Source: a phage. Taken from it: DNA of 64,000 nt. The position numbers and the translations under genes are program-made. The DNA lies in NCBI GenBank assembly GCA_036253055.1, contig GCA_036253055.1_4124.1. The stretch is one strand, 5' to 3'. A model generated the notes under the pieces. That model did not search any database and was not told where the DNA came from. It worked only from the letters and a program-made list of their open reading frames with translations. Positions 3,183 through 24,993 of this stretch are shown here, piece by piece. Positions within the stretch are counted from its first letter, which is position 1, and every line of letters starts with the position of its first letter.

Positions 3183-3399
3183 TTTATATCTCGCTCTTTT
3201 GGAGGTGGGCTGCACTATTGCCGCCCTACGAGATACATTATCTCAGTACTGATATACTTTGTCAATACTTTTTTTGAAATAGTTTTGAGTACTGGCATTA
3301 CATCCACCAGCAGATAGTTACTCACCGTTATTAACTATCTTATAGATACTTCTCTGCACCCTGTGGGCTAGTTTTTGTCTATGCGTATATAATAGCAAA

Positions 3400-3429
3400 G
3401 GGACTGACCGGAGTCAATCCCTTTTTTTT
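3400..3429 (-). terminator. hairpin plus T-run (intrinsic terminator-like), overlapping a minus-strand promoter -35
   Basis: GGGACTGAC-CGGA-GTCAATCCC then TTTTTTTT; same element at 5326-5347, 8188-8209, 12213-12232. Confidence 0.5.
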
Positions 3430-3440
3430 ATTCTTTTTTG

Positions 3441-5361: not shown

Positions 5362-5946
5362 TTATCGTGTTATAGTTATCGCGTTAACATCACGTTTTTT
5401 ATAGTACTGATTCCAGATATTGCGGGTTAAACCGTAATCAAGTACTTTAATCAAGCCGTTGCGATCCTGGCCGATATTCTGTTTTCTGATATCTCTTATC
5501 GTTAGTGTGGATAATGTATCATCAACGTGATTGAGAGCATCAGCGAAATGGTGATGGCGTTCTACCGTATTACGTTTAATATTGTACTTTAACTCATTGC
5601 ACGCGTTTACATGCTTTACACTGCCTTTGCTTGCAGTACTCAAACGATCCATAACAATAAACAGATTATCAGGATCGCATAAATGCATATGCACTTTAGC
5701 AAAGTACTGTTTAAGGTGCGGACGGTCATAATCTAAAAAATTCCATACCTTACATTCAGTTTCATTTTGTTCTACACCCGCATCACAATTCGCGACCTTA
5801 ATCACTAACCGATCATTTAAAGCGAATACAATACGGGAAGAACCCGCACCGACGATCTCCAGTCCAGCTAACCGACAAGCTGAAAGGATCTCTTTGTTGG
5901 TTTCCATTGCATGAAGTGAACGGATGAATTTAGTATAGTTACGCAT
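5362..5946 (-). CDS. protein kinase-like protein (Ser/Thr kinase fold)
   Basis: Gly-rich loop GAGSSRIVFA, VIKV lysine, catalytic-loop-like DIRKQN, DYG (DFG-like); start moved to ATG 5944-5946 (SD AAGGAG); track start was TTG. Confidence 0.6.
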   Translation of the reverse strand: MRNYTKFIRSLHAMETNKEILSACRLAGLEIVGAGSSRIVFALNDRLVIKVANCDAGVEQNETECKVWNFLDYDRPHLKQYFAKVHMHLCDPDNLFIVMDRLSTASKGSVKHVNACNELKYNIKRNTVERHHHFADALNHVDDTLSTLTIRDIRKQNIGQDRNGLIKVLDYGLTRNIWNQYYKKRDVNAITITR

Positions 5947-5977
5947 TGTGTTGACTCCTTGAGTTAATGAAACTATA

Positions 5978-6220
5978 TTACAGTACTTTACTATCAATGG
6001 CAACTACTTTTTTTACTTGAACTGCGTGGAATACTTCACTCGTATTTTTAGTACTGAATACTTTTGCCGTACCTTGTTCGACCGCAATACGATAGCGACC
6101 GTTAACGTCCACCATATTGATAAAGTCCGGTGTACTGAATGGAGTTACCCGGCATTTAAGAACGGTTAACAGTTCCACCAGCGTTGTAGTCTCTTTGATA
6201 CGTTTTTCTAAAGTAATCAT
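5978..6220 (-). CDS. hypothetical protein
   Basis: Track start is promoter TTGACA read as TTG; ATG 6218-6220 used. Confidence 0.45.
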   Translation of the reverse strand: MITLEKRIKETTTLVELLTVLKCRVTPFSTPDFINMVDVNGRYRIAVEQGTAKVFSTKNTSEVFHAVQVKKVVAIDSKVL

Positions 6221-6273: not shown

Positions 6274-6528
6274 TCAACGTGATATTAGTTTTATTTTTTT
6301 ATTGTATTGTTGGTGTTCATATAGATTAATTTTTCCAGTACTCTCGATCACTATTCTATTGTTAGTGTCTACATCGATAACACGTAGTTTCCCGTTGCTT
6401 AACTTCCTGGGTAATAGACTACCATTAATAAACTCATTAGCAAGCTGTACGGCCTTTGTGATGATTCTCTGTGGGGCTTTATAGTGTACCCGTAATACAT
6501 TATCGTTTGATAGTTGAACCTTAATCAT
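6274..6528 (-). CDS. hypothetical protein
   Basis: 84 aa; ATG 6526-6528. Confidence 0.5.
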   Translation of the reverse strand: MIKVQLSNDNVLRVHYKAPQRIITKAVQLANEFINGSLLPRKLSNGKLRVIDVDTNNRIVIESTGKINLYEHQQYNKKIKLISR

Positions 6529-9296: not shown

Positions 9297-9485
9297 TTAC
9301 AGTTTATGAATCAATTCTTTATCTAAGCGATAGCGAACATTATTGATTGTAACTGCATTGTTTTTAATGCTACGCTGTACAGGTCCACCAGCAATAACAA
9401 ACGTTGCCTTATTGCCCCGAACGATGATAGCACTTCCAGGATTACCAAAATCATCTTGTACTAAAATACTTGATAAGTTTTGCAT
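9297..9485 (-). CDS. hypothetical protein
   Basis: 62 aa; SD AAGGAAAG; promoter and hairpin 9503-9561. Confidence 0.5.
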   Translation of the reverse strand: MQNLSSILVQDDFGNPGSAIIVRGNKATFVIAGGPVQRSIKNNAVTINNVRYRLDKELIHKL

Positions 9486-9533
9486 TTGTCTTTCCTTGTA
9501 GTGGGGAGAACTATTCTCCCCTTCATGTAAACT

Positions 9534-9564: not shown

Positions 9565-9921
9565 CTAGGATAAAATCATTATAGGATATTCACAGTTAAT
9601 CAGTACTTCAAAACCAAAACTTTCATACCATTCTTTAAGATTAAACTCGTTATCTTCTCCCGTATCGCATTCTAAGATGATACAATCTGAATCATCGGCG
9701 GCATCAATAAAGGCATTCATTAATTCAGTACCTTCACCGTTACCGCGATTATCGGGATCAACATAAAGAGAATCAATAAACGCTACACGATCATAATCAA
9801 GATCCGGTGCAACAATGCCACGTTTAACAAACCAGTACTGCAATTGTGCTACTTTGCCTTGTACTTGATAGCCAGTGATCTCACCATTGTCTGTAGTACG
9901 CGTGATATGTTGTATACCCAT
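9565..9921 (-). CDS. GNAT-family N-acetyltransferase-like protein
   Basis: Motif-A-like DNRGNGEGTELMNAFIDAA; 118 aa; SD GAGGA. Confidence 0.5.
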   Translation of the reverse strand: MGIQHITRTTDNGEITGYQVQGKVAQLQYWFVKRGIVAPDLDYDRVAFIDSLYVDPDNRGNGEGTELMNAFIDAADDSDCIILECDTGEDNEFNLKEWYESFGFEVLINCEYPIMILS

Positions 9922-9984: not shown

Positions 9985-10242
9985 TTATCTCATAGATCTA
10001 TGCCAACAATTACGGGGATTGCGTTTGAATATGCTATCATGATCAGCCTGGCAAGTGATGCAGTACTTACACCCCTTAACGGCCAGGCGGCGATTCTCAG
10101 GGATTTTATCGCCGCAGTCGAGGCAATGTATCAGTGATTCTATTTGTGCGTTAATTTGCGTTCTAGCGTGGTTTACAGCGGCCTGAATCACTGCGTTAAT
10201 CTCGTCTTGCTCGGCCCCGTCATTCGCGAATCCAACAGCCAT
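9985..10242 (-). CDS. TraR/DksA-family C4 zinc-finger protein
   Basis: CLDCGDKIPENRRLAVKGCKYCITCQ fits the TraR/DksA C4 zinc-finger pattern. Confidence 0.6.
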   Translation of the reverse strand: MAVGFANDGAEQDEINAVIQAAVNHARTQINAQIESLIHCLDCGDKIPENRRLAVKGCKYCITCQADHDSIFKRNPRNCWHRSMR

Positions 10243-16535: not shown

Positions 16536-16641
16536 TATCTACATAAAGACGAGATAGTCACTAACCCACAGGGTGCATAGATCCGTCTATTAAATGATTC
16601 AGTACTGCAAAATAAAGGGGATCGTTTGATCCCCCTGATTA

Positions 16642-20054: not shown

Positions 20055-20417
20055 CGTTTTAATCTCTTTTAAAGTGTAGCGGGAAGTGTTCCCGCTCTCG
20101 ATGTAAAACATTCTACACCTTTCCCAATACTTTGCAAGTACTTTCTACAAATACTTTTAAAATAGTTTTCTTTCTATATAGGGGAACTATCTTTCAGTAC
20201 TGCAACCATCCAGGGGAACTATCTTTCTATATAGTAGTACTATGATTCAGTACTGAATCAATCCACCAAATCATCCCGATACCCCGTAAAACGGCCTCAG
20301 ACGCATTCTAACGCATTAATACACCTAAGCTATACATTTGCACCATTCCAATCATTCCAGGGCTTTACAGGCCGTTTAAACGCGTTAAATTATTTTCAAT
20401 TATTTTGTTTTTAGCTA

Positions 20418-20445
20418 TTGACTCAGTACTAAAAAAGCGTATAAT
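20418..20445 (+). promoter_or_regulatory. plus-strand sigma70 consensus promoter (TTGACT, 16 nt, TATAAT) in ORF-free region
   Basis: Perfect -10 TATAAT 20440-20445; no ORF downstream. Confidence 0.45.
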
Positions 20446-20880
20446 TACTACATAGACGCGAGAAAGCGGATACCCCAGGGGGTGGGAAGATCCGTCCAAA
20501 ATTCAAGATATAAAAAAAGGATACACTCCCGCACCCTAGCAGGTTAACGCACTTTCTCAGTACTGAATTATAGTACCATAGTCCGGCCCAGGATGGCAAG
20601 CAAATTAATTAAAACTTTTTTCATCCAGGGTATTGCTTTATTTTTCCAGTACTGTATAATAGTTCCATCAAGTCGAGAAAGACTCAAGCCCACCGGGTGC
20701 ATAGTTACGCCCAAAATTCAGTACTGAAAAAATTTTTAAAAATATCCGTCCAGGCCGTTGACATTGCCCCCAGTTTATAAGATAATGATTCCAGATTCAG
20801 AAAAATCTAACTCCAGATACTGCGGGGAAACTATCCCCACGCGGTAGGGGAACTATTGGAAAAAACAAAATAAAATTTTG

Positions 20881-21030
20881 ATTTAGCCGTCTATACTTCC
20901 AGACGTGTAACCATCTAGCCGTTTAGCCGTCCAAACGTCTAGCAATCCAGCCATCCAGAAATCTAGCCGTTTAGCCGTCTAGATGGATAGCCATCTTTAC
21001 TTCCAGACTTCTGGAGGGCTAGACATATCT
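20881..21030. repeat. iteron-like direct repeats (TAGCCGT units; 17-mer CTAGCCGTTTAGCCGTC twice)
   Basis: TAGCCGT at 20884, 20916, 20924, 20964, 20972; ACTTCCAGAC twice; in ORF-free region. Confidence 0.5.
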
Positions 21031-21701
21031 ACGTCCAAAATCCACCCAGGGTAACTACGCCCAAAATCCGTCAGTACTATACCATAGATCTATCTTTTGA
21101 AAGGGAGTATTCAGTACTGTCATCATAGCCCTCACTATGTTACCCTAGGAGGATGAAGACTATCATGTAGTACTGAATACTGTTAGAGGGAATCCACCAG
21201 CACAAGCTGGTGGCATAATGCTTTAGATTAAAATCAGTACTGACACCATTCTGTTAATATCAGTACTGTTATTACGATTTTCATATGAGGTTCAAAAAGA
21301 TGTACCACCACAGGAGGAACTATCTTTTCTGTACTGTCTCACGACAGGAGGTAGAGTAAATGAATTGTTCGCAGCAACTCATCACCCTATGTAGAACATT
21401 ATACAGTACTGAATCATAATGTCAATAGCTTTCTTTCATTATTCAGTACTGAAATCGTATAATCTGTATCGCTACAAAACTCATTATATCCCACAAATCC
21501 TATATGTCCCAACGTAAATTTCAACTTTCGAAGATCCAACTTTTATTTCATAGGTACTCCAAAATTTTTAGGATCGAGATTTAGGATGGAGTACTAACCA
21601 ACTTTTTGCTGGAGCCTCAAGGGGTAATTGAATTTTACCCCGAAGGGTAAAAGGGTAATTGAAATTAAGGTGAAAGTAATAATTCAGTACTAATCATTGC
21701 G

Positions 21702-21928
21702 TGATTACTTTTGATTACATTTGATGTAATTTGCAAAATGGAAAAGGAGCTTGGAAACTACAAAGTACGGCAGACTTCCTCTGCCTACTTAGTGGCATAT
21801 CAGTACTGCTACGTTCTTGATTAAACGTGAACATTCCTGTACTCTAGTACTCACTACTGATCACTACAGTGATTATAAATGATTACTTAAATGTTTATAT
21901 ATGATTACTTATGACTACCTATGATTAC
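21702..21928. repeat. cluster of TGATTAC direct repeats
   Basis: TGATTAC at about 21702, 21713, 21880, 21902, 21922, plus variant ATGACTAC. Confidence 0.4.
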
Positions 21929-21968
21929 GGGGTTTAGCCTGGGGAGAATCCTAGTGATCGCATTTGTC

Positions 21969-22008
21969 CAGGCTGAATTTTAACATATGCAACATATGTT
22001 AAAGCCTG
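21969..22008. repeat. large imperfect palindrome centred on TTAACATATG-CAA-CATATGTTAA
   Basis: Perfect 10-bp arms 21980-21989 and 21993-22002, flanked by CAGGCT/AGCCTG. Confidence 0.55.
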
Positions 22009-22044
22009 TATAATGCTTCCACTACGGAGCTTCCCCTAGCTATA

Positions 22045-22236
22045 TTACTTCCTATATATAATCATTAAGATATAGTAGTACTGATTATACTGTACATTCT
22101 CTTTAATATTATAAGGGTCTATAGCAATCTCGGTACATCTGTTAAATGCATATCTATTAAATGCCAGTGGAATTATAGATCTAATCCATACTTGTTCATT
22201 TTCTTTTAGTTTACTTATATAGAAGTTTTTATACAT
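22045..22236 (-). CDS. small protein, paralog family B (about 60 aa)
   Basis: 63 aa; C-terminal YYYILMIIYRK. Confidence 0.5.
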   Translation of the reverse strand: MYKNFYISKLKENEQVWIRSIIPLAFNRYAFNRCTEIAIDPYNIKENVQYNQYYYILMIIYRK

Positions 22237-22251
22237 AGTATTCTCTATTAA

Positions 22252-22434
22252 TTAATATGATAGTACTAGTGTTAGTACTGAGCACAATTGTTCTTTGTAG
22301 TTCTTAGGGTATATAGAATCTTTTATGCACTCATTGAAGTGCCATAGGTATAATCTTGGGTCGCATTCTTTATATATTCTTACGGGGACGAATGTTAGTT
22401 TTCTTATATAGAATTCTTTATGTTCTTTATTCAT
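22252..22434 (-). CDS. small protein, paralog family B
   Basis: MNKEHKEFYIRKL N-terminus. Confidence 0.5.
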   Translation of the reverse strand: MNKEHKEFYIRKLTFVPVRIYKECDPRLYLWHFNECIKDSIYPKNYKEQLCSVLTLVLSY

Positions 22435-22439
22435 ATTAG

Positions 22440-22625
22440 TTAGTGTCTGTATATAAGTAATAGTAAGAATACGTACTGCACATCTTCATCTTTAGTATTG
22501 AGTACTGTACGTATTGCGTCATTAAACAAGAATATAGTACTTGGGTCATGAGAATTTAAAGGGGTTCTGGGTACGGCATGTTTGTAGTTCCCTTTAACAA
22601 ATTGTGTGTAGTATTCTCTATGCAT
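22440..22625 (-). CDS. small protein, paralog family B
   Basis: MHREYYTQF...LLLLIYRH. Confidence 0.5.
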   Translation of the reverse strand: MHREYYTQFVKGNYKHAVPRTPLNSHDPSTIFLFNDAIRTVLNTKDEDVQYVFLLLLIYRH

Positions 22626-22626
22626 A

Positions 22627-22812
22627 TTAGTACCTATATATTAGGGCGAGAATGTAGTACAATTCATATGGAATGTAATTTGGGGTGATCGCACACTGTG
22701 TATGGTAAATGAATTGTTCGGTATTTTTCTTATCCTTGATATCTATTGGGATTAGTGGTATAAGCATTTGGGAGTTTAGATCCAGATGGCTTAAGTAGAA
22801 TTCTTTATGCAT
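22627..22812 (-). CDS. small protein, paralog family B
   Basis: MHKEFYLSHL...YYILALIYRY. Confidence 0.5.
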   Translation of the reverse strand: MHKEFYLSHLDLNSQMLIPLIPIDIKDKKNTEQFIYHTQCAITPNYIPYELYYILALIYRY

Positions 22813-22821
22813 ATTGTTCTC

Positions 22822-23010
22822 TTAGAATACGAAAGCTAGGTACAGGGTATGATACAGTACTCGATGGTAGCTGTCAAAATCTAGTATACATGCTTTAGTG
22901 CACATAGTAAAATACACTTTATCATTTTGTGCATTGATACCGCGAGGTTTATCTAATAGATTAGTTCTGAGGTACATTGGGAAATATTTTGTGTAGTATT
23001 CTTTATGCAT
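22822..23010 (-). CDS. small protein, paralog family B
   Basis: Start moved to internal MHKEYY (ATG 23008-23010) to match family length. Confidence 0.45.
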   Translation of the reverse strand: MHKEYYTKYFPMYLRTNLLDKPRGINAQNDKVYFTMCTKACILDFDSYHRVLYHTLYLAFVF

Positions 23011-23011
23011 G

Positions 23012-23194
23012 TTAGTACCTGAATATAAGTAGGATAGTGTTATATAGCTGGTCATAACTACTACTATTTTCTATACTTCGTTCTATGCAGTTATTGAATC
23101 CCAGTACTGCCAAATCGTTATCCAGAGGGACTTTATATCTGGCGTAGTGTTCAAAAATGCTGGGGAGAAATTGTGTGTAGTATTCTTTGTGCAT
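23012..23194 (-). CDS. small protein, paralog family B
   Basis: MHKEYYTQF...ILLIFRY. Confidence 0.5.
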   Translation of the reverse strand: MHKEYYTQFLPSIFEHYARYKVPLDNDLAVLGFNNCIERSIENSSSYDQLYNTILLIFRY

Positions 23195-23195
23195 A

Positions 23196-23381
23196 TTAGT
23201 ACCTATATATTAGTAAAAGGATGTGATACAGTACTCGATTATAGTCTTCAATATATATCGAGGATTTAGTGCACTGAATGAAGTAGTCTTTTTCGTAGTT
23301 TTTTTCTATACCCAATGGTTCTGTTGGTACAAGGTGTTGGAGATACATTGGGAGTTTCTCTATGTAGTATTCTTTATGCAT
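23196..23381 (-). CDS. small protein, paralog family B
   Basis: MHKEYYIEKLPMYLQ...LLLIYRY. Confidence 0.5.
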   Translation of the reverse strand: MHKEYYIEKLPMYLQHLVPTEPLGIEKNYEKDYFIQCTKSSIYIEDYNRVLYHILLLIYRY

Positions 23382-23382
23382 G

Positions 23383-23571
23383 TTAGTACTTAAATGTTAG
23401 GGCGAGGATGTAATACAGTTTATATGTTCTATCCTCATACATTAGGGTGTACTTAGTACATTCCTGGAACATTGTTTTTGCGTCATCTTTTATGCCCAAT
23501 GCAACGTTTGGTATATGGCTCTGTAGATACATTGGGAGTTTCTCTATGTAGTATTCTTTGTGGTTATTCAT
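23383..23571 (-). CDS. small protein, paralog family B
   Basis: MNNHKEYYIEKLPMYLQ...ILALTFKY. Confidence 0.5.
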   Translation of the reverse strand: MNNHKEYYIEKLPMYLQSHIPNVALGIKDDAKTMFQECTKYTLMYEDRTYKLYYILALTFKY

Positions 23572-23572
23572 A

Positions 23573-23755
23573 TTAGTACCTGAATGTTAGCATTACTACG
23601 TAGTACAGCATATATGGATTATCATCGTATATGAGCGTGTACTTAGTACATTGTTGGAACATTATCTTTGCGTGATCTTTTATTCCTATTGGTTCTGTTG
23701 GTATATGGTGCTGGAGATGCATAGGGATTTTATCCCTGTAGTATTCTTTGTGCAT
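23573..23755 (-). CDS. small protein, paralog family B
   Basis: MHKEYYRDKIPMHLQ...VVMLTFRY. Confidence 0.5.
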   Translation of the reverse strand: MHKEYYRDKIPMHLQHHIPTEPIGIKDHAKIMFQQCTKYTLIYDDNPYMLYYVVMLTFRY

Positions 23756-23765
23756 GTTGTTCTCT

Positions 23766-23948
23766 TTAGTACTTATATATTAGGAGTAAAATGTTATAGT
23801 ACTGGTTCATTGCGTCATCATTTTCTATAGCACGTTTTACGCTATTCATGTAGTTAGATCGAGCGGCACGAGTTATGAGAAGAACTTTGTATGCAGCAAA
23901 GTATTTTTGCTGCACGGGTAGTTTAGAGATATAGTATTCTTTATACAT
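23766..23948 (-). CDS. small protein, paralog family B
   Basis: Start moved to internal MYKEYY (ATG 23946-23948). Confidence 0.45.
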   Translation of the reverse strand: MYKEYYISKLPVQQKYFAAYKVLLITRAARSNYMNSVKRAIENDDAMNQYYNILLLIYKY

Positions 23949-24612
23949 AGTTTGTAATATACGTAATGAGGTGATGCATTTTCTTATTAGTACTGATAAT
24001 TTCCTGTACATGTTTTGTCAGATTGTACGCGTTTTTATAGAGTACTGGATTATCGATTACAGTACTGTACATGAATAGTTCTTCTTCCTGTAGTTCTTTG
24101 TGTTCTAGTTCTTTGAGGAAATCTACAATTGATTTAGTTTCTTCTGTACGTTGTGCTTGCCAGAAGTGCATATTCTCGTGTACTTTTTTTGAACCCATAT
24201 TGTATATGCCACCCATTTGGAATTGTGCTGTATTGACATCGTGGGAGGTGTTACAATTCCCGAAGAAGTATGTATTCCCGAAGTATAGCATTAAAGTGCA
24301 CGGGGTATTATCCAACTGCATATGGATGATGAAGGATGCGTTCTTTAGTACCTTTGTGCTCGTATTAGTACTCAATACTTTTAAATCAGTATTATAGATA
24401 TTCATATAATGAACAGCTATATTATTTTTTTTCATATACAAATCAAGGTTCTTTGATACGTTAACACCATTTGTACTGGATTTTTCCTTTTTATTTCGTT
24501 TCTTTAGTACATTCGGGTGATACGTATATGCAGATGTAACTGATTCTGCCTGAATACTATTGAGGTACTTAAAGTGCTTAAGGTATTGTTTGCTGTGTGC
24601 ATTAAGTTTCAT
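23941..24612 (-). CDS. hypothetical protein (223 aa) inside the family-B array
   Basis: ORF track; AT-rich; no motif recognised; overlaps next gene start by 8 nt. Confidence 0.45.
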   Translation of the reverse strand: MKLNAHSKQYLKHFKYLNSIQAESVTSAYTYHPNVLKKRNKKEKSSTNGVNVSKNLDLYMKKNNIAVHYMNIYNTDLKVLSTNTSTKVLKNASFIIHMQLDNTPCTLMLYFGNTYFFGNCNTSHDVNTAQFQMGGIYNMGSKKVHENMHFWQAQRTEETKSIVDFLKELEHKELQEEELFMYSTVIDNPVLYKNAYNLTKHVQEIISTNKKMHHLITYITNYV

Positions 24613-24622
24613 TTGGTTTCCT

Positions 24623-24802
24623 TTATATAGATGCCAGGGCGAGGATTTCCCTGTAGGGATTATCTTGTGTTAGTACAGCATAAATGCAGCTATTGAGATT
24701 AATATTTTTAGTACTTTTTGTTCCTAGGTTGTAGTAATCAACGAAGGTGTCGTACATGAAACGGTCTTTTATGGTTATACGTTCTATATAGAATTGTTGC
24801 AT
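24623..24802 (-). CDS. small protein, paralog family B (59 aa)
   Basis: Not in track (<60 aa); hand-translated MQQFYIERITIKD...YREILALASI; SD AAGGAA. Confidence 0.45.
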   Translation of the reverse strand: MQQFYIERITIKDRFMYDTFVDYYNLGTKSTKNINLNSCIYAVLTQDNPYREILALASI

Positions 24803-24810
24803 AGTATTCC

Positions 24811-24993
24811 TTAAATAGCGATTAGTTTCATTACTTCTCTGTATGTGTACTTTTCGTTTTGTGCATCTCTTGTGACGACATATAGGAAGGTGTGTTTATC
24901 TTTTTTGTTCCCGCAATTGTAGAAAATATTGAACTTATTGAAGTTGAATCTTTCGGCGTGTTGTAGTTTAGTTAAATAGAATTCTATGTTCAT
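24811..24993 (-). CDS. small protein, paralog family B (subfamily 2)
   Basis: MNIEFYLTKL...YTYREVMKLIAI. Confidence 0.5.
   Translation of the reverse strand: MNIEFYLTKLQHAERFNFNKFNIFYNCGNKKDKHTFLYVVTRDAQNEKYTYREVMKLIAI

Follow-up and report, generated by a model that had tools for sequence, protein, structure and literature searches.

A conserved non-coding region at the probable end of the long direct terminal repeat of a Rak2-like jumbo coliphage and its candidate array of MetJ boxes

The DNA analysed here, a stretch of 64,000 nucleotides hereafter referred to as the window, belongs to a Rak2-like jumbo coliphage (giant E. coli phage) of the genus Asteriusvirus. Positions 20112 to 22044 contain no open reading frame (ORF) of 60 amino acids or more on either strand. 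This 1,933-nt region had been singled out in an earlier note made from the sequence alone, and it is indeed the longest such gap in the window, the runner-up measuring 750 nt. The absence of ORFs of this size is not statistically special for non-coding DNA, as 47 of 300 shuffled versions of the region were equally ORF-free. In most related records the equivalent region carries no annotation. Its identity to the related genome G17 was found to be 95%, compared with 86–92% for the flanking genes, and the conservation profile ranged between 88 and 100% over positions 20300–21620. The ORF-free stretch is thus under stronger constraint than the early genes beside it.

The exact repeat of G17 (20,668 bp) was mapped onto window positions 1619–21789, delimiting a putative direct terminal repeat of approximately 20.2 kb; its small early genes are all encoded on the minus strand. 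The ends of three related genomes, G17, fEgEco12 and vB_Ec-M-J, were established separately and share a terminal base corresponding to window position 21789. All three finish with the terminal sequence ...GGCAGACTTCCTCTGCCTACT, and the window sequence at this position is identical to these determined termini. The ends of fEgEco12 were obtained from PhageTerm plus restriction digests (PMC13070987), while the record of vB_Ec-M-J has an annotated terminal repeat and starts at the same base as that of fEgEco12; phage Sharanji has a repeat of the same length according to PhageTerm. Terminal repeats of approximately 20–21 kb have been established in relatives from PhageTerm, restriction digests and read coverage (PMC13070987, PMC11895373, PMC6563267). 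Placed from these termini, the end of the packaged genome would be at window position 21789. Since the three relatives end at this base, the ORF-free stretch would comprise the last 1,678 bp (1.68 kb) of the repeat followed by 255 bp of unique DNA. Read on the minus strand, the genome would start with 5'-AGTAGGCAGAGGAAGTCTGCCGTACT, in which a hairpin opens at nucleotide 1. This terminal hairpin, at the putative genome end and terminase cut site (21764–21789, minus strand), has a folding energy of −8.7 kcal/mol (z = −4.0).

Every repeat listed in the earlier note could be located in the sequence, and several of them lie close to this end. TGATTAC repeats with a phasing of approximately 10 bp are present on the plus strand both inside the terminal repeat (21702–21725, 65–90 bp from the end) and, as TGATTAC/TGATTAT, on the unique side of the boundary (21870–21928), with a period of about 10 in Tandem Repeats Finder. 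The GGGTAATTGAA / AAGGGTAA direct repeats were found near 21620–21660. A large imperfect palindrome (21969–22008, no strand assigned) occupies the unique overrun just downstream of the last minus-strand gene of 60 amino acids and folds with −13.7 kcal/mol (z = −5.1); its Rfam match to a miRNA precursor was judged to be due to chance. Further inside the repeat, block B (21546–21614, no strand assigned) was identified as a candidate packaging or end-recognition element. It contains an inverted repeat conserved across genera, with arms GTACTCCA (21554–21561) and TGGAGTAC (21587–21594) and two ATCCTAAA-type repeats between them, and shows 82–93% identity in Munch, XbC2 and GAP32. In fEgEco12, Munch, XbC2 and Serratia BF the distance between this block and the record start is about 50–240 nt; for fEgEco12 this start is a determined end. 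At the other extremity of the region, upstream of the first early gene, duplicated AGGGGAACTATCTTTC units are present on the plus strand (20180–20227); the two copies of GGGGAACTATCTTTC (20180–20195 and 20212–20227) are 100% identical and each stands beside a CAGTACTG palindrome. The latter occurs 11 times in the region and 56 times in the window, where 0.8 copies would be expected; a literature search for this motif returned primer sequences only. SlmA was considered as a reader of the abundant AGTACT motif and rejected, as its sites require G1, T2, a purine at position 3, A4 and G5 (PMC3020112), whereas position 3 is C in the phage motif and the window contains no GAGTACTC.

Promoter-like sequences of the sigma70 type are dense on both strands of the region. 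On the minus strand, a perfect promoter (TTGACA-16-TATAAT, 12/12) was identified at 21425–21398; it has CAGTACTG in its spacer, is 96% conserved, lies 365–392 nt from the genome end and is directed at the early genes. Three further promoters were assigned to the plus strand. The P1 promoter-leader module (20418–20517) starts with TTGACT-16-TATAAT (20418–20445, 11/12). The P2 module (20633–20700) starts with TTGCTT-16-TATAAT (20633–20660), in which the −35 element is weaker and the spacer again contains CAGTACTG. P3 (TTGACA-17-GATAAT, 20758–20786, 11/12) is directed into the array described below, towards the genome end. P1 and P2 correspond to the two plus-strand promoters that had been proposed at 20418–20445 and around 20650, and both lead into variants of the CCCACAGGGTGC motif as had been claimed. 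Their conserved leaders contain a covarying hairpin, CGC-GAGAAA-GCG (20457–20468) followed by CCCCAGGGGGTGGG (20473–20486) for P1, and AGTC-GAGAAA-GACT (20671–20684) followed by CCCACCGGGTGC (20689–20700) for P2. The covariation score of 0.218 compares with 0.084 in shuffled sequences, none of 500 shuffles reaching the former value. The same leader also precedes ordinary early genes elsewhere in the terminal repeat. The P1 module (block A) is the most widely conserved block, with 87–92% identity in Munch, XbC2, Serratia BF and fHe-Yen9-04.

No clear intrinsic terminators were found after P1–P3 in a scan of the region. Two terminator-like hairpins were noted on the minus strand: a weak site downstream of the inward promoter, where two copies of CAGTACTG pair and are followed by ATTTTAATCT (21235–21268, z = −2.8), and the G+C-rich hairpin CCACCAGC-TTGT-GCTGGTGG (21192–21211, −9.8 kcal/mol, z = −5.2), which the G17 annotation gives as a terminator (ARNOLD). 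A further candidate on this strand (20537–20518) was discarded as it folds no better than shuffled sequences (z = −0.8). Phage RNA polymerase promoters are absent from the stretch. The perfect minus-strand promoter had been overlooked in the earlier note, as had the repeat boundary at 21789 and the 11 copies of CAGTACTG in the region.

Between P3 and the inward promoter lie the TAGCCGT repeats that had initially been described as iteron-like. Tandem Repeats Finder returned a period of 8 with 12.4 copies (20884–20982), and in register the array extends to 19 contiguous 8-bp units (20885–21036, no strand assigned), among them AGCCGTCT, AGACGTGT and AAACGTCT. Comparison with the met-box consensus AGACGTCT gave 109 matches over 152 positions; the best 10-unit run had 59 of 80, compared with at most 40 of 80 in shuffles. 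We therefore describe the units as a candidate met-box array. Under the published rule for the repressor MetJ, a site consists of at least two adjacent 8-bp boxes, each scoring at least one quarter of the consensus score, with a total of at least the consensus score, 12.58 bits (PMC3228920). With the published matrix, 15 of the 19 units were above the single-box threshold, for a total of 117.5 bits. Only two MetJ sites were predicted in the entire 64 kb, both in the array, one of 7 boxes and 53.2 bits and the other of 6 boxes and 43.8 bits; shuffled sequences gave at most 21.7 bits. The same matrix gave 31.2 bits for the E. coli metJ/B operator and 24.9 bits for that of metF, and the match to consensus per unit was 72% in the array, 75% in metJ/B and 69% in metF. 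By sequence, the array matches MetJ binding sites and is a predicted operator.

The repressor itself would be provided by the host, metJ being encoded in E. coli K-12. Enterobacterales, Vibrionales and Aeromonadales all have MetJ, and its motif is conserved among these orders (PMC4239095). No phage-encoded MetJ homologue was found in 50,697 phage records, the three matches obtained being misfiled host contigs or fragments. The array does not lie in a methionine or S-adenosylmethionine (SAM) gene control region: there is no methionine gene nearby, and its setting is the terminal repeat of a phage. Searches of 5,426 E. coli genomes and 72,556 plasmids yielded no comparable array. In one respect the units depart from host sites, as C is about as frequent as A at position 3, whereas in natural met boxes C occupies this position in only approximately 10% of half-sites (PMC3228920).

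Arrays of 8–25 units with the consensus A-G-(A/C)-C-(G/A)-T-C-T were also found in Mimasvirus, Eneladusvirus, Demerecviridae infecting Aeromonas, Vibrio and Providencia, and Ermolevavirus PGT2. They are thus carried by three unrelated phage lineages, the Rak2-like jumbo myoviruses, T5-family siphoviruses and Ermolevavirus podoviruses, and lie near the termini wherever these are defined or can be deduced. In PGT2, a T7-like podovirus, the array is 40–114 nt from the left end; in the T5-family phages AhSzw-1 and Pontus it is in the equivalent untranslated region, and in PSTCR5 in an ORF-free gap. Across Rak2-like genera the order of elements is kept: first early gene, P1 module, 8-bp array, block B and genome end. 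Within Asteriusvirus the array varies in length by −16, −8 or +8 bp, so that its register is kept. All named hosts but one belong to MetJ-encoding orders; the exception is the array-bearing phage XbC2, which was recorded on Xanthomonas, an organism without MetJ, and whose genus-mate GAP32 infects Cronobacter. Munch, Muenster and T5 were found to have no array, which is therefore not essential for phages with long repeats.

Taken together, these observations make it fairly probable that the stretch is the cis-acting non-coding end of the ~20-kb direct terminal repeat, with proposed roles in packaging, promoter activity and MetJ binding. We infer the functions of the individual elements from their sequence and position. 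Within about 250 bp of the end, the terminal hairpin, phased TGATTAC repeats and block B may act as signals by which terminase and end-processing proteins direct cutting and packaging. Host RNA polymerase would initiate at the genome end from the promoter at 21425–21398 and proceed towards the early genes, while P1, P2 and P3 would drive transcription through the array and over the repeat boundary. The 19-unit array itself would act as a 'super-operator' to which MetJ, the SAM-dependent repressor of the host, would bind cooperatively, covering approximately 150 bp and forming a nucleoprotein block about 750–900 bp from the end. Such a block could serve as a roadblock to transcription or nucleases, as a landmark during packaging or the entry of DNA, or as a sink for MetJ which would derepress methionine and SAM synthesis. 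The MetJ part of this scheme has to be weighed against the departure at position 3, the record of XbC2 on a host devoid of MetJ, and the possibility that the array is bound instead by a ribbon-helix-helix (RHH) protein encoded outside the window or too divergent for Pfam. We advance only as a tentative proposal, somewhat less likely than not to hold, that three unrelated lineages recruit the SAM-sensing MetJ of their hosts to their genome ends. It would there be either a sink or a cap; in the latter version, we propose a protective or regulatory nucleoprotein linking DNA entry, early transcription or packaging to the SAM status of the host.

A phage-encoded RHH protein of the ParG/omega type, coating the array as part of a centromere-like or packaging complex, could account for some of these features. 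Such proteins generally cover arrays of short repeats, and ParG sites, made of 4-bp boxes and 4-bp spacers, have the same 8-bp period (PMC3413123); the systematic difference from host met boxes at position 3 also favours a reader other than MetJ. However, of the 75 ORFs on the minus strand of the repeat and flanking DNA, none encodes an RHH domain (the fold of MetJ) detectable with Pfam, and neither do the genes beside the arrays in five other phages. The families recovered from the repeat ORFs and array neighbours were limited to ParE-like, GNAT, DksA/TraR and DUF families, 'Serglycin' matches having been dismissed as an artefact of Gly-Ser linkers added in the analysis. The same protein would moreover be needed in three unrelated phage families, no similar array was found in plasmids, and the scores of the units under the MetJ matrix are far above chance, all of which makes this alternative unlikely. 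Even less probable is the replication origin that the earlier note had proposed, in which a phage initiator would use the array as iterons and transcripts from the flanking promoters would act as primers or activators, as at T4 oriF and oriG or the primary origin of T7. The dense repeats beside strong promoters in a conserved non-coding block are in keeping with an origin, and P1 seems to be opposed by a weaker, non-canonical start on the minus strand near 20562–20577, seen by eye and missed by the promoter scan, which if real would form a convergent pair with it. A local minimum of cumulative GC skew at 21.4–22.4 kb points the same way, but the sign change at about 22 kb in the 64-kb window could be traced to a tandem family of 60-amino-acid (MHKEYY) genes of unusual composition at 22045–24993, whose coding-strand skew at codon position 3 is −0.37 compared with about 0 in other genes. 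The block of opposite skew ends at a second change at approximately 40 kb, where gene orientation switches, and after this codon-position analysis the skew within the window was no longer taken as a sign of an origin. No DnaA boxes (TTWTNCACA) occur in 20112–22044 and their number in the whole window equals chance; no initiator-like gene or domain was found in neighbouring ORFs; the 8-bp units are contiguous, unlike spaced iterons of ~17–22 bp, and satisfy the operator rule of a host repressor; and one common initiator would not be expected in three unrelated phage families. The origin reading accordingly gained no support.

Strong promoters without a downstream ORF, a conserved leader with a covarying hairpin and terminator-like hairpins on the minus strand could also belong to a small-RNA locus, in which P1, P2, P3 and the inward promoter would mainly yield short regulatory non-coding RNAs acting on host or phage genes. 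Such a locus appears rather unlikely, if less so than the preceding alternatives: no Rfam family was matched at gathering and E-value thresholds, no tRNA or tmRNA was detected by scanning, P1–P3 are not followed by clear terminators, and the occurrence of the leader before ordinary early genes suggests that it marks early transcripts rather than small RNAs. The region might alternatively be an injection stop of the T5 type, the end at ~1619 entering first, transfer pausing here, and P1–P3 or early proteins then pulling in the rest. As in T5, the minus-strand early genes are followed by a large untranslated, repeat-rich region, located at the inner end of the left repeat and overrunning its boundary by 255 bp compared with 270 bp in T5; arrays occupy the corresponding regions of AhSzw-1 and Pontus and an ORF-free gap in PSTCR5; and the three tandem host promoters would be aimed at DNA still outside the cell. 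On the other hand, the paired DnaA boxes that are the defining feature of the T5 region are missing, and the repeat has no homologues of A1, A2 or dmp, a tblastn comparison of T5 dmp, A1, A2 and ORF 007 with the window giving no match better than E = 0.2. T5 itself has no array, and a perfect inward promoter 370 nt from the end would suit entry from the 21789 end, as in T7. We consider a stop of this kind about as doubtful as an RHH-coated array.

Our preferred reading thus remains a non-coding terminal-repeat end with packaging, promoter and candidate MetJ-array elements. It retains the 'regulatory hub' of the earlier note, which is borne out by conservation above that of the flanking genes and by the density of sigma70 promoters on both strands, and abandons its replication origin; that the region holds a physical genome end had gone unrecognised. 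Many large lytic phages have long terminal repeats, whose non-coding ends are almost never annotated, and the function of the equivalent T5 region has been argued over since 1987. For Rak2-like phages this region now has an anatomy, consisting of a predicted cut site, candidate packaging signals, host promoters facing both inwards and outwards and a candidate repressor-box array, and annotators can be told where these genomes start. We found no description of MetJ recruitment to phage genome ends in the searchable literature, and no Asteriusvirus transcriptome data. Should such recruitment occur, as it may in at least three phage families, it would constitute a new phage-host interface, in which a host transcription factor serves as a structural or sensing component or as a titrated decoy, and would offer a new handle on the control of DNA entry or packaging in terminal-repeat phages.

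Several known systems invite comparison. Host MetJ operators have 2–5 met boxes that are cooperatively bound. As in those of E. coli, the 8-bp units of the array follow one another without gaps, keep strict register and share a conserved TCT|AG junction; the array differs in having 19 units (8–25 in relatives) instead of the 4 present in each of the scanned operators (metJ/B and metF), in its location in a phage terminal repeat and in the frequent C at position 3. Long fixed-period arrays of short degenerate repeats that are cooperatively coated are likewise found in the ParG sites parH and OF and in the omega heptads (PMC3413123), but here there is no cognate RHH gene and no plasmid similarity, and the consensus is of the MetJ type. 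The P1 and P2 leaders were also compared with nut leaders of the lambda type (boxA plus boxB), which combine a promoter-proximal hairpin having a purine-rich loop with a conserved linear box and a cognate antiterminator; in the P1 and P2 leaders the hairpin covaries and a conserved 12-mer comes after it, and this 12-mer appears unlike boxA. Repeat Region 3 of T5 (the injection stop signal, iss) is likewise an untranslated block, rich in repeats and palindromes, that ends a long direct terminal repeat, with pre-early or early genes transcribed away from it and conservation above that of neighbouring ORFs; our region differs in having neither DnaA boxes nor A1/A2 genes, and no T5 record was among the BLAST matches listed for the stretch. 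In T7, the tandem host promoters A1–A3 lie near the entering end, repeat arrays adjoin the terminal repeat, and DNA maturation is connected with transcription that enters the concatemer junction, transcription and pausing there being linked to packaging. The region analysed here resembles T7 in its strong host-type promoters within a few hundred bp of a defined end, in the short-period arrays flanking the repeat and in the direction of transcription across the repeat boundary, although its terminal repeat measures 20 kb compared with 160 bp in T7.

At 92-97% identity, the ORF-free stretch at 20112-22044 had matches in 42 phage records. Almost all were Asteriusvirus jumbo phages of Escherichia or Salmonella (PBECO4, 121Q, G17, slurp01, fEgEco12 and others), a genus that belongs to the Rak2-like group, and most annotators of the related records had left the stretch blank. 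At 1,933 nt it was the longest stretch in the window without an ORF of at least 60 aa on either strand, against 750 nt for the runner-up. A tRNA scan of the window found none, and an Rfam search of it returned no family at gathering thresholds. The repeats listed in the earlier note were all recovered, including an array of 8-bp period at about 20884-21036, the duplicated AGGGGAACTATCTTTC and phased TGATTAC repeats at 21702-21725 and 21870-21928. Shuffles folded far less well than the palindrome at 21969-22008, and plus-strand promoters were confirmed at 20418-20445 (P1) and 20758-20786 (each 11/12), with a weaker one at 20633-20660 (P2). The label of regulatory hub given to the stretch stands. 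The minus strand also carries a perfect TTGACA-16-TATAAT promoter (21425-21398), which had been overlooked, as had the palindrome CAGTACTG, with 11 copies inside the stretch, and the end of the genome.

Phage G17 was deposited as a linear sequence of 370,817 bp, whose ends are an exact 20,668-bp direct repeat that maps onto window 1619-21789. The G17 repeat was detected as doubled read coverage (PMC6563267), and that of Sharanji was set at 20,668 bp by PhageTerm (PMC11895373). The records of fEgEco12 and vB_Ec-M-J have the opposite orientation and start with AGTAGGCAGAGGAAGTCTGCC, the reverse complement of the window from 21789 downwards; for fEgEco12 the ends come from PhageTerm, with confirmation by restriction digests (PMC13070987). 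Three separately deposited records hence share the same terminal base, with ends fixed by reads or digests for at least two of the three, and we regard the boundary at 21789 as near certain. The ORF-free stretch thus combines the final 1,678 bp of the repeat with 255 bp of unique sequence. At the very start of the genome, nucleotides 1-26 fold into a hairpin (z = -4.0). The flanking genes on both sides are all on the minus strand, and the layout in genome orientation is the end, 1.7 kb of non-coding DNA, and about 19 kb of small early genes reading away from the end.

The records of Munch, XbC2 and Serratia BF, from three other Rak2-like genera, start with TATCT(T/G)(T/C)TC, and in Munch the first 23 nt (TATCTTCT...AGAAGATA) form a nucleotide-1 hairpin that parallels the terminal hairpin at 21764-21789. 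The opposite boundary of the repeat, at window 1619 (position 1 of G17), falls within a 220-bp gap (1560-1780) in which ACGCATT-type repeats occur four times and AAAAAGTCAAGGGATTAC/CGCCTTGAC-like elements twice; two further copies of ACGCATT were found at 20303-20325, and no similarity was seen between the boundary at 1619 and the cut-site hairpin at 21789. Early genes of the repeat with Pfam matches, all on the minus strand, lie at 6274-6528, 9565-9921, 9985-10242 and 5362-6003. Their matches are, in that order, to a ParE-like toxin domain (E = 1e-8), a GNAT acetyltransferase (3e-8) and a DksA/TraR C4 zinc finger (1e-9), with a weak protein-kinase-like match (0.04) for the last, and they are candidates for host-takeover functions.

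Identity to G17 was 95% over 20236-23562 versus 86-92% in the genes of the repeat, and an alignment of nine genomes (the window and eight relatives) showed 88-100% identity over 20300-21620. In more distant Rak2-like genera similarity was restricted to islands: block A (20438-20517), comprising the P1 promoter and its leader, for which Munch, XbC2, Serratia BF and fHe-Yen9-04 show 87-92% identity; the array plus its left flank; and block B (21546-21614), an inverted repeat GTACTCCA...TGGAGTAC around two ATCCTAAA-type repeats, with 82-93% identity in Munch, XbC2 and GAP32. In fEgEco12, Munch, XbC2 and Serratia BF, about 50-240 nt separate block B from the start of the record. XbC2, Serratia BF and the window all have the elements in the order P1 module, array, block B, end, and this shared order points to a cis-acting architecture linked to the terminus. 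Position, conservation and synteny together make a terminal cis-acting control region a well supported assignment, with the hairpin, block B and the TGATTAC repeats as candidate signals for cutting and packaging.

The array comprises 19 contiguous 8-bp units (20885-21036) reading, in register from 20885, AGCCGTCT ATACTTCC AGACGTGT AACCATCT AGCCGTTT AGCCGTCC AAACGTCT AGCAATCC AGCCATCC AGAAATCT AGCCGTTT AGCCGTCT AGATGGAT AGCCATCT TTACTTCC AGACTTCT GGAGGGCT AGACATAT CTACGTCC. These repeats had been called iteron-like; they are indeed present, but in register they are contiguous 8-mers that obey the site rule of MetJ, the SAM-dependent methionine repressor of the host, whose operators are by definition tandem 8-bp met boxes of consensus AGACGTCT (PMC4239095; PMC3413123). 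The array matched this consensus at 109 of 152 positions, and its best 10-unit run scored 59/80, compared to at most 40/80 in shuffles. When the consensus scan was calibrated on 8 kb of E. coli K-12, the known metJ/metB (75% match) and metF (69%) operators ranked as the top two. With the position matrix that Augustus and Spicer published, together with their site rule (PMC3228920), in which a single consensus box is worth 12.58 bits, 15 of the 19 units passed the single-box threshold and the array totalled 117.5 bits. Exactly two sites were returned for the 64-kb window, both in the array (seven boxes, 53.2 bits; six boxes, 43.8 bits), while the operators of E. coli itself scored 31.2 and 24.9 bits and shuffled windows 21.7 bits at most. 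Counting against MetJ, position 3 is C in about half of the units versus about 10% of natural half-sites. Overall, we judge binding of MetJ to the array in vitro to be reasonably likely. No phage-encoded MetJ homologue was found among phage records, and neither the 75 minus-strand ORFs from the repeat with its flanking DNA nor the genes adjoining the arrays of other phages had a detectable ribbon-helix-helix domain (the fold of MetJ). Similar arrays were absent from 72,556 plasmids and 5,426 E. coli genomes.

BLAST searches with the array alone as query identified related arrays in other Rak2-like genera (Mimasvirus GAP32 and XbC2, Eneladusvirus Serratia BF and fHe-Yen9, and Erwinia phages), in Demerecviridae (the T5 family) of Aeromonas, Vibrio and Providencia, and in the Ermolevavirus podoviruses PGT2, phiKT and KPV811; none was present in Munch, Muenster or T5. 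Read in register they contain 8-25 units of common consensus A-G-(A/C)-C-(G/A)-T-C-T, almost all above the PMC3228920 threshold (9/9 in PSTCR5, 16/16 in AhSzw-1). Within Asteriusvirus, array length varies by -16, -8 or +8 bp, so that the register is kept. The arrays lie near termini wherever these are defined or inferable: the distance to the end is 763-914 nt for fEgEco12, about 650-800 nt for XbC2 and Serratia BF and 40-114 nt for PGT2, and in AhSzw-1 and Pontus the array lies in the untranslated block equivalent to the T5 injection-stop region. The named hosts belong to orders encoding MetJ, the sole exception being the XbC2 record (Mimasvirus, listed on Xanthomonas), and the MetJ motif is conserved across those orders (PMC4239095). 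The most parsimonious reading is a host factor common to three unrelated families of phages, and, judged by sequence, MetJ is the factor whose site rule the array follows. In CMSTMSU (an 'UNVERIFIED_ORG' record, 1476-1586) the array forms two 7-unit runs overlapping by one base, implying a 1-nt frame slip, for which an assembly error is a more probable cause than biology.

Early promoters within the repeat follow one pattern, namely an UP-like A-tract, TTGACA, N8, CAGTACTG and (T)ATAAT. At least nine copies in the window carry a common leader, which starts near ACAT, continues with a 3-4-bp hairpin whose purine-rich hexaloop (GAGAAA, AGATAA or similar) is closed by a stem of variable sequence, and has CCCAYAGGGTGC(GG) 2-4 nt past the hairpin. 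These modules lie near 3367, 5288, 8155, 10510, 12174 and 18945 on the minus strand and near 16565, 20474 and 20689 on the plus strand. They were also found in Munch, Muenster, Serratia BF, XbC2 and GAP32, the family being conserved across Asteriusvirus, Mimasvirus, Eneladusvirus, Alcyoneusvirus and Munch-like phages. In a fixed-register alignment of 22 copies, double changes occurred at all four stem pairs, and the covariation score of 0.218, versus 0.084 in shuffles, was reached by none of 500 shuffles and exceeded all slid controls. The leader could be an antitermination, stability or processing signal of early transcripts, and a likeness to the lambda nut leaders may serve as a lead. P1 and P2 are two such modules which, unlike most others, are directed at the genome end, an orientation kept in other genera; they would drive early transcription units running through the array and across the repeat boundary. 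In T7, transcription runs into the concatemer junction, and the direction of P1 and P2 may be comparable, again as a lead.

The hexamer AGTACT occurs 267 times in the 64 kb, about 12-fold over the base-composition estimate of about 22 (for example at 20195, 20248, 20558, 20647, 20719, 21112, 21235, 21261, 21404, 21444 and 21801), and CAGTACTG is the commonest 8-mer of the window (56 sites versus 0.8 expected). Both are found in coding and non-coding DNA alike. AGTACT density per kb is 10 in the non-coding end of the repeat, 5.9 in its genes, about 3 elsewhere and zero in 1-1618; GAGTACTC does not occur in the 64-kb window. In promoters CAGTACTG sits within the spacer, its 3' TG touching the -10 element, and Munch, XbC2 and Serratia BF have several AGTACT copies in their first 300 nt. 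SlmA does not fit as a reader of the motif.

The alternative raised in the earlier note, a replication origin, was to be checked by GC skew. An inflection is seen near the stretch, the plus-strand skew going from -0.1 to +0.2 at 21.4-22.2 kb, and with the genes at 22045-24993 on the same strand as those of the repeat this change was origin-like at first look. This minus-strand set consists of paralogues in tandem, at least 12 in number and about 60 aa long (MHKEYY...LLLIYRY; 26 pairs at E < 1e-3), that match nothing in Pfam and have an anomalous composition: Tyr-rich, with a C-rich coding strand whose skew is -0.04, -0.21 and -0.37 by codon position. They are anomalous at all three positions, whereas in every other gene set of the window position 1 gives +0.3 to +0.5 and position 3 about 0. 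The composition of these paralogues alone produces the local flip at the repeat boundary, and the block of opposite skew ends at about 40 kb, at a change of gene orientation; the skew therefore reflects gene content. With no DnaA boxes in the stretch and no initiator gene near it, the proposal of an origin has no positive support and seems unlikely.

The terminal control region can be compared with Repeat Region 3 of T5, the injection stop signal. It occupies 1.2 kb of untranslated, repeat-rich DNA where the left terminal repeat of T5 has its inner end, overruns the boundary by 270 bp and is conserved above neighbouring ORFs. DnaA boxes (TTATCCACA) stand beside CTGTATA(N)TATACAG palindromes, which resemble the LexA-box consensus, in AhSzw-1 (3300-3440, Aeromonas), Pontus (600-800, Vibrio) and T5 (9400-9520); both adjoin met-box arrays in AhSzw-1 and Pontus, and T5 has both without an array. 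The untranslated repeat regions of these T5-family phages seem to cluster sites for several host factors. The layout of Repeat Region 3 is the same as that of the ORF-free stretch, and some members of the T5 family have a met-box array of the same kind; however, the paired DnaA boxes that define Repeat Region 3 are absent from the stretch, as are the T5 A1/A2 genes here. In architecture the ORF-free stretch is analogous to the T5 region, but it does not belong to that family.
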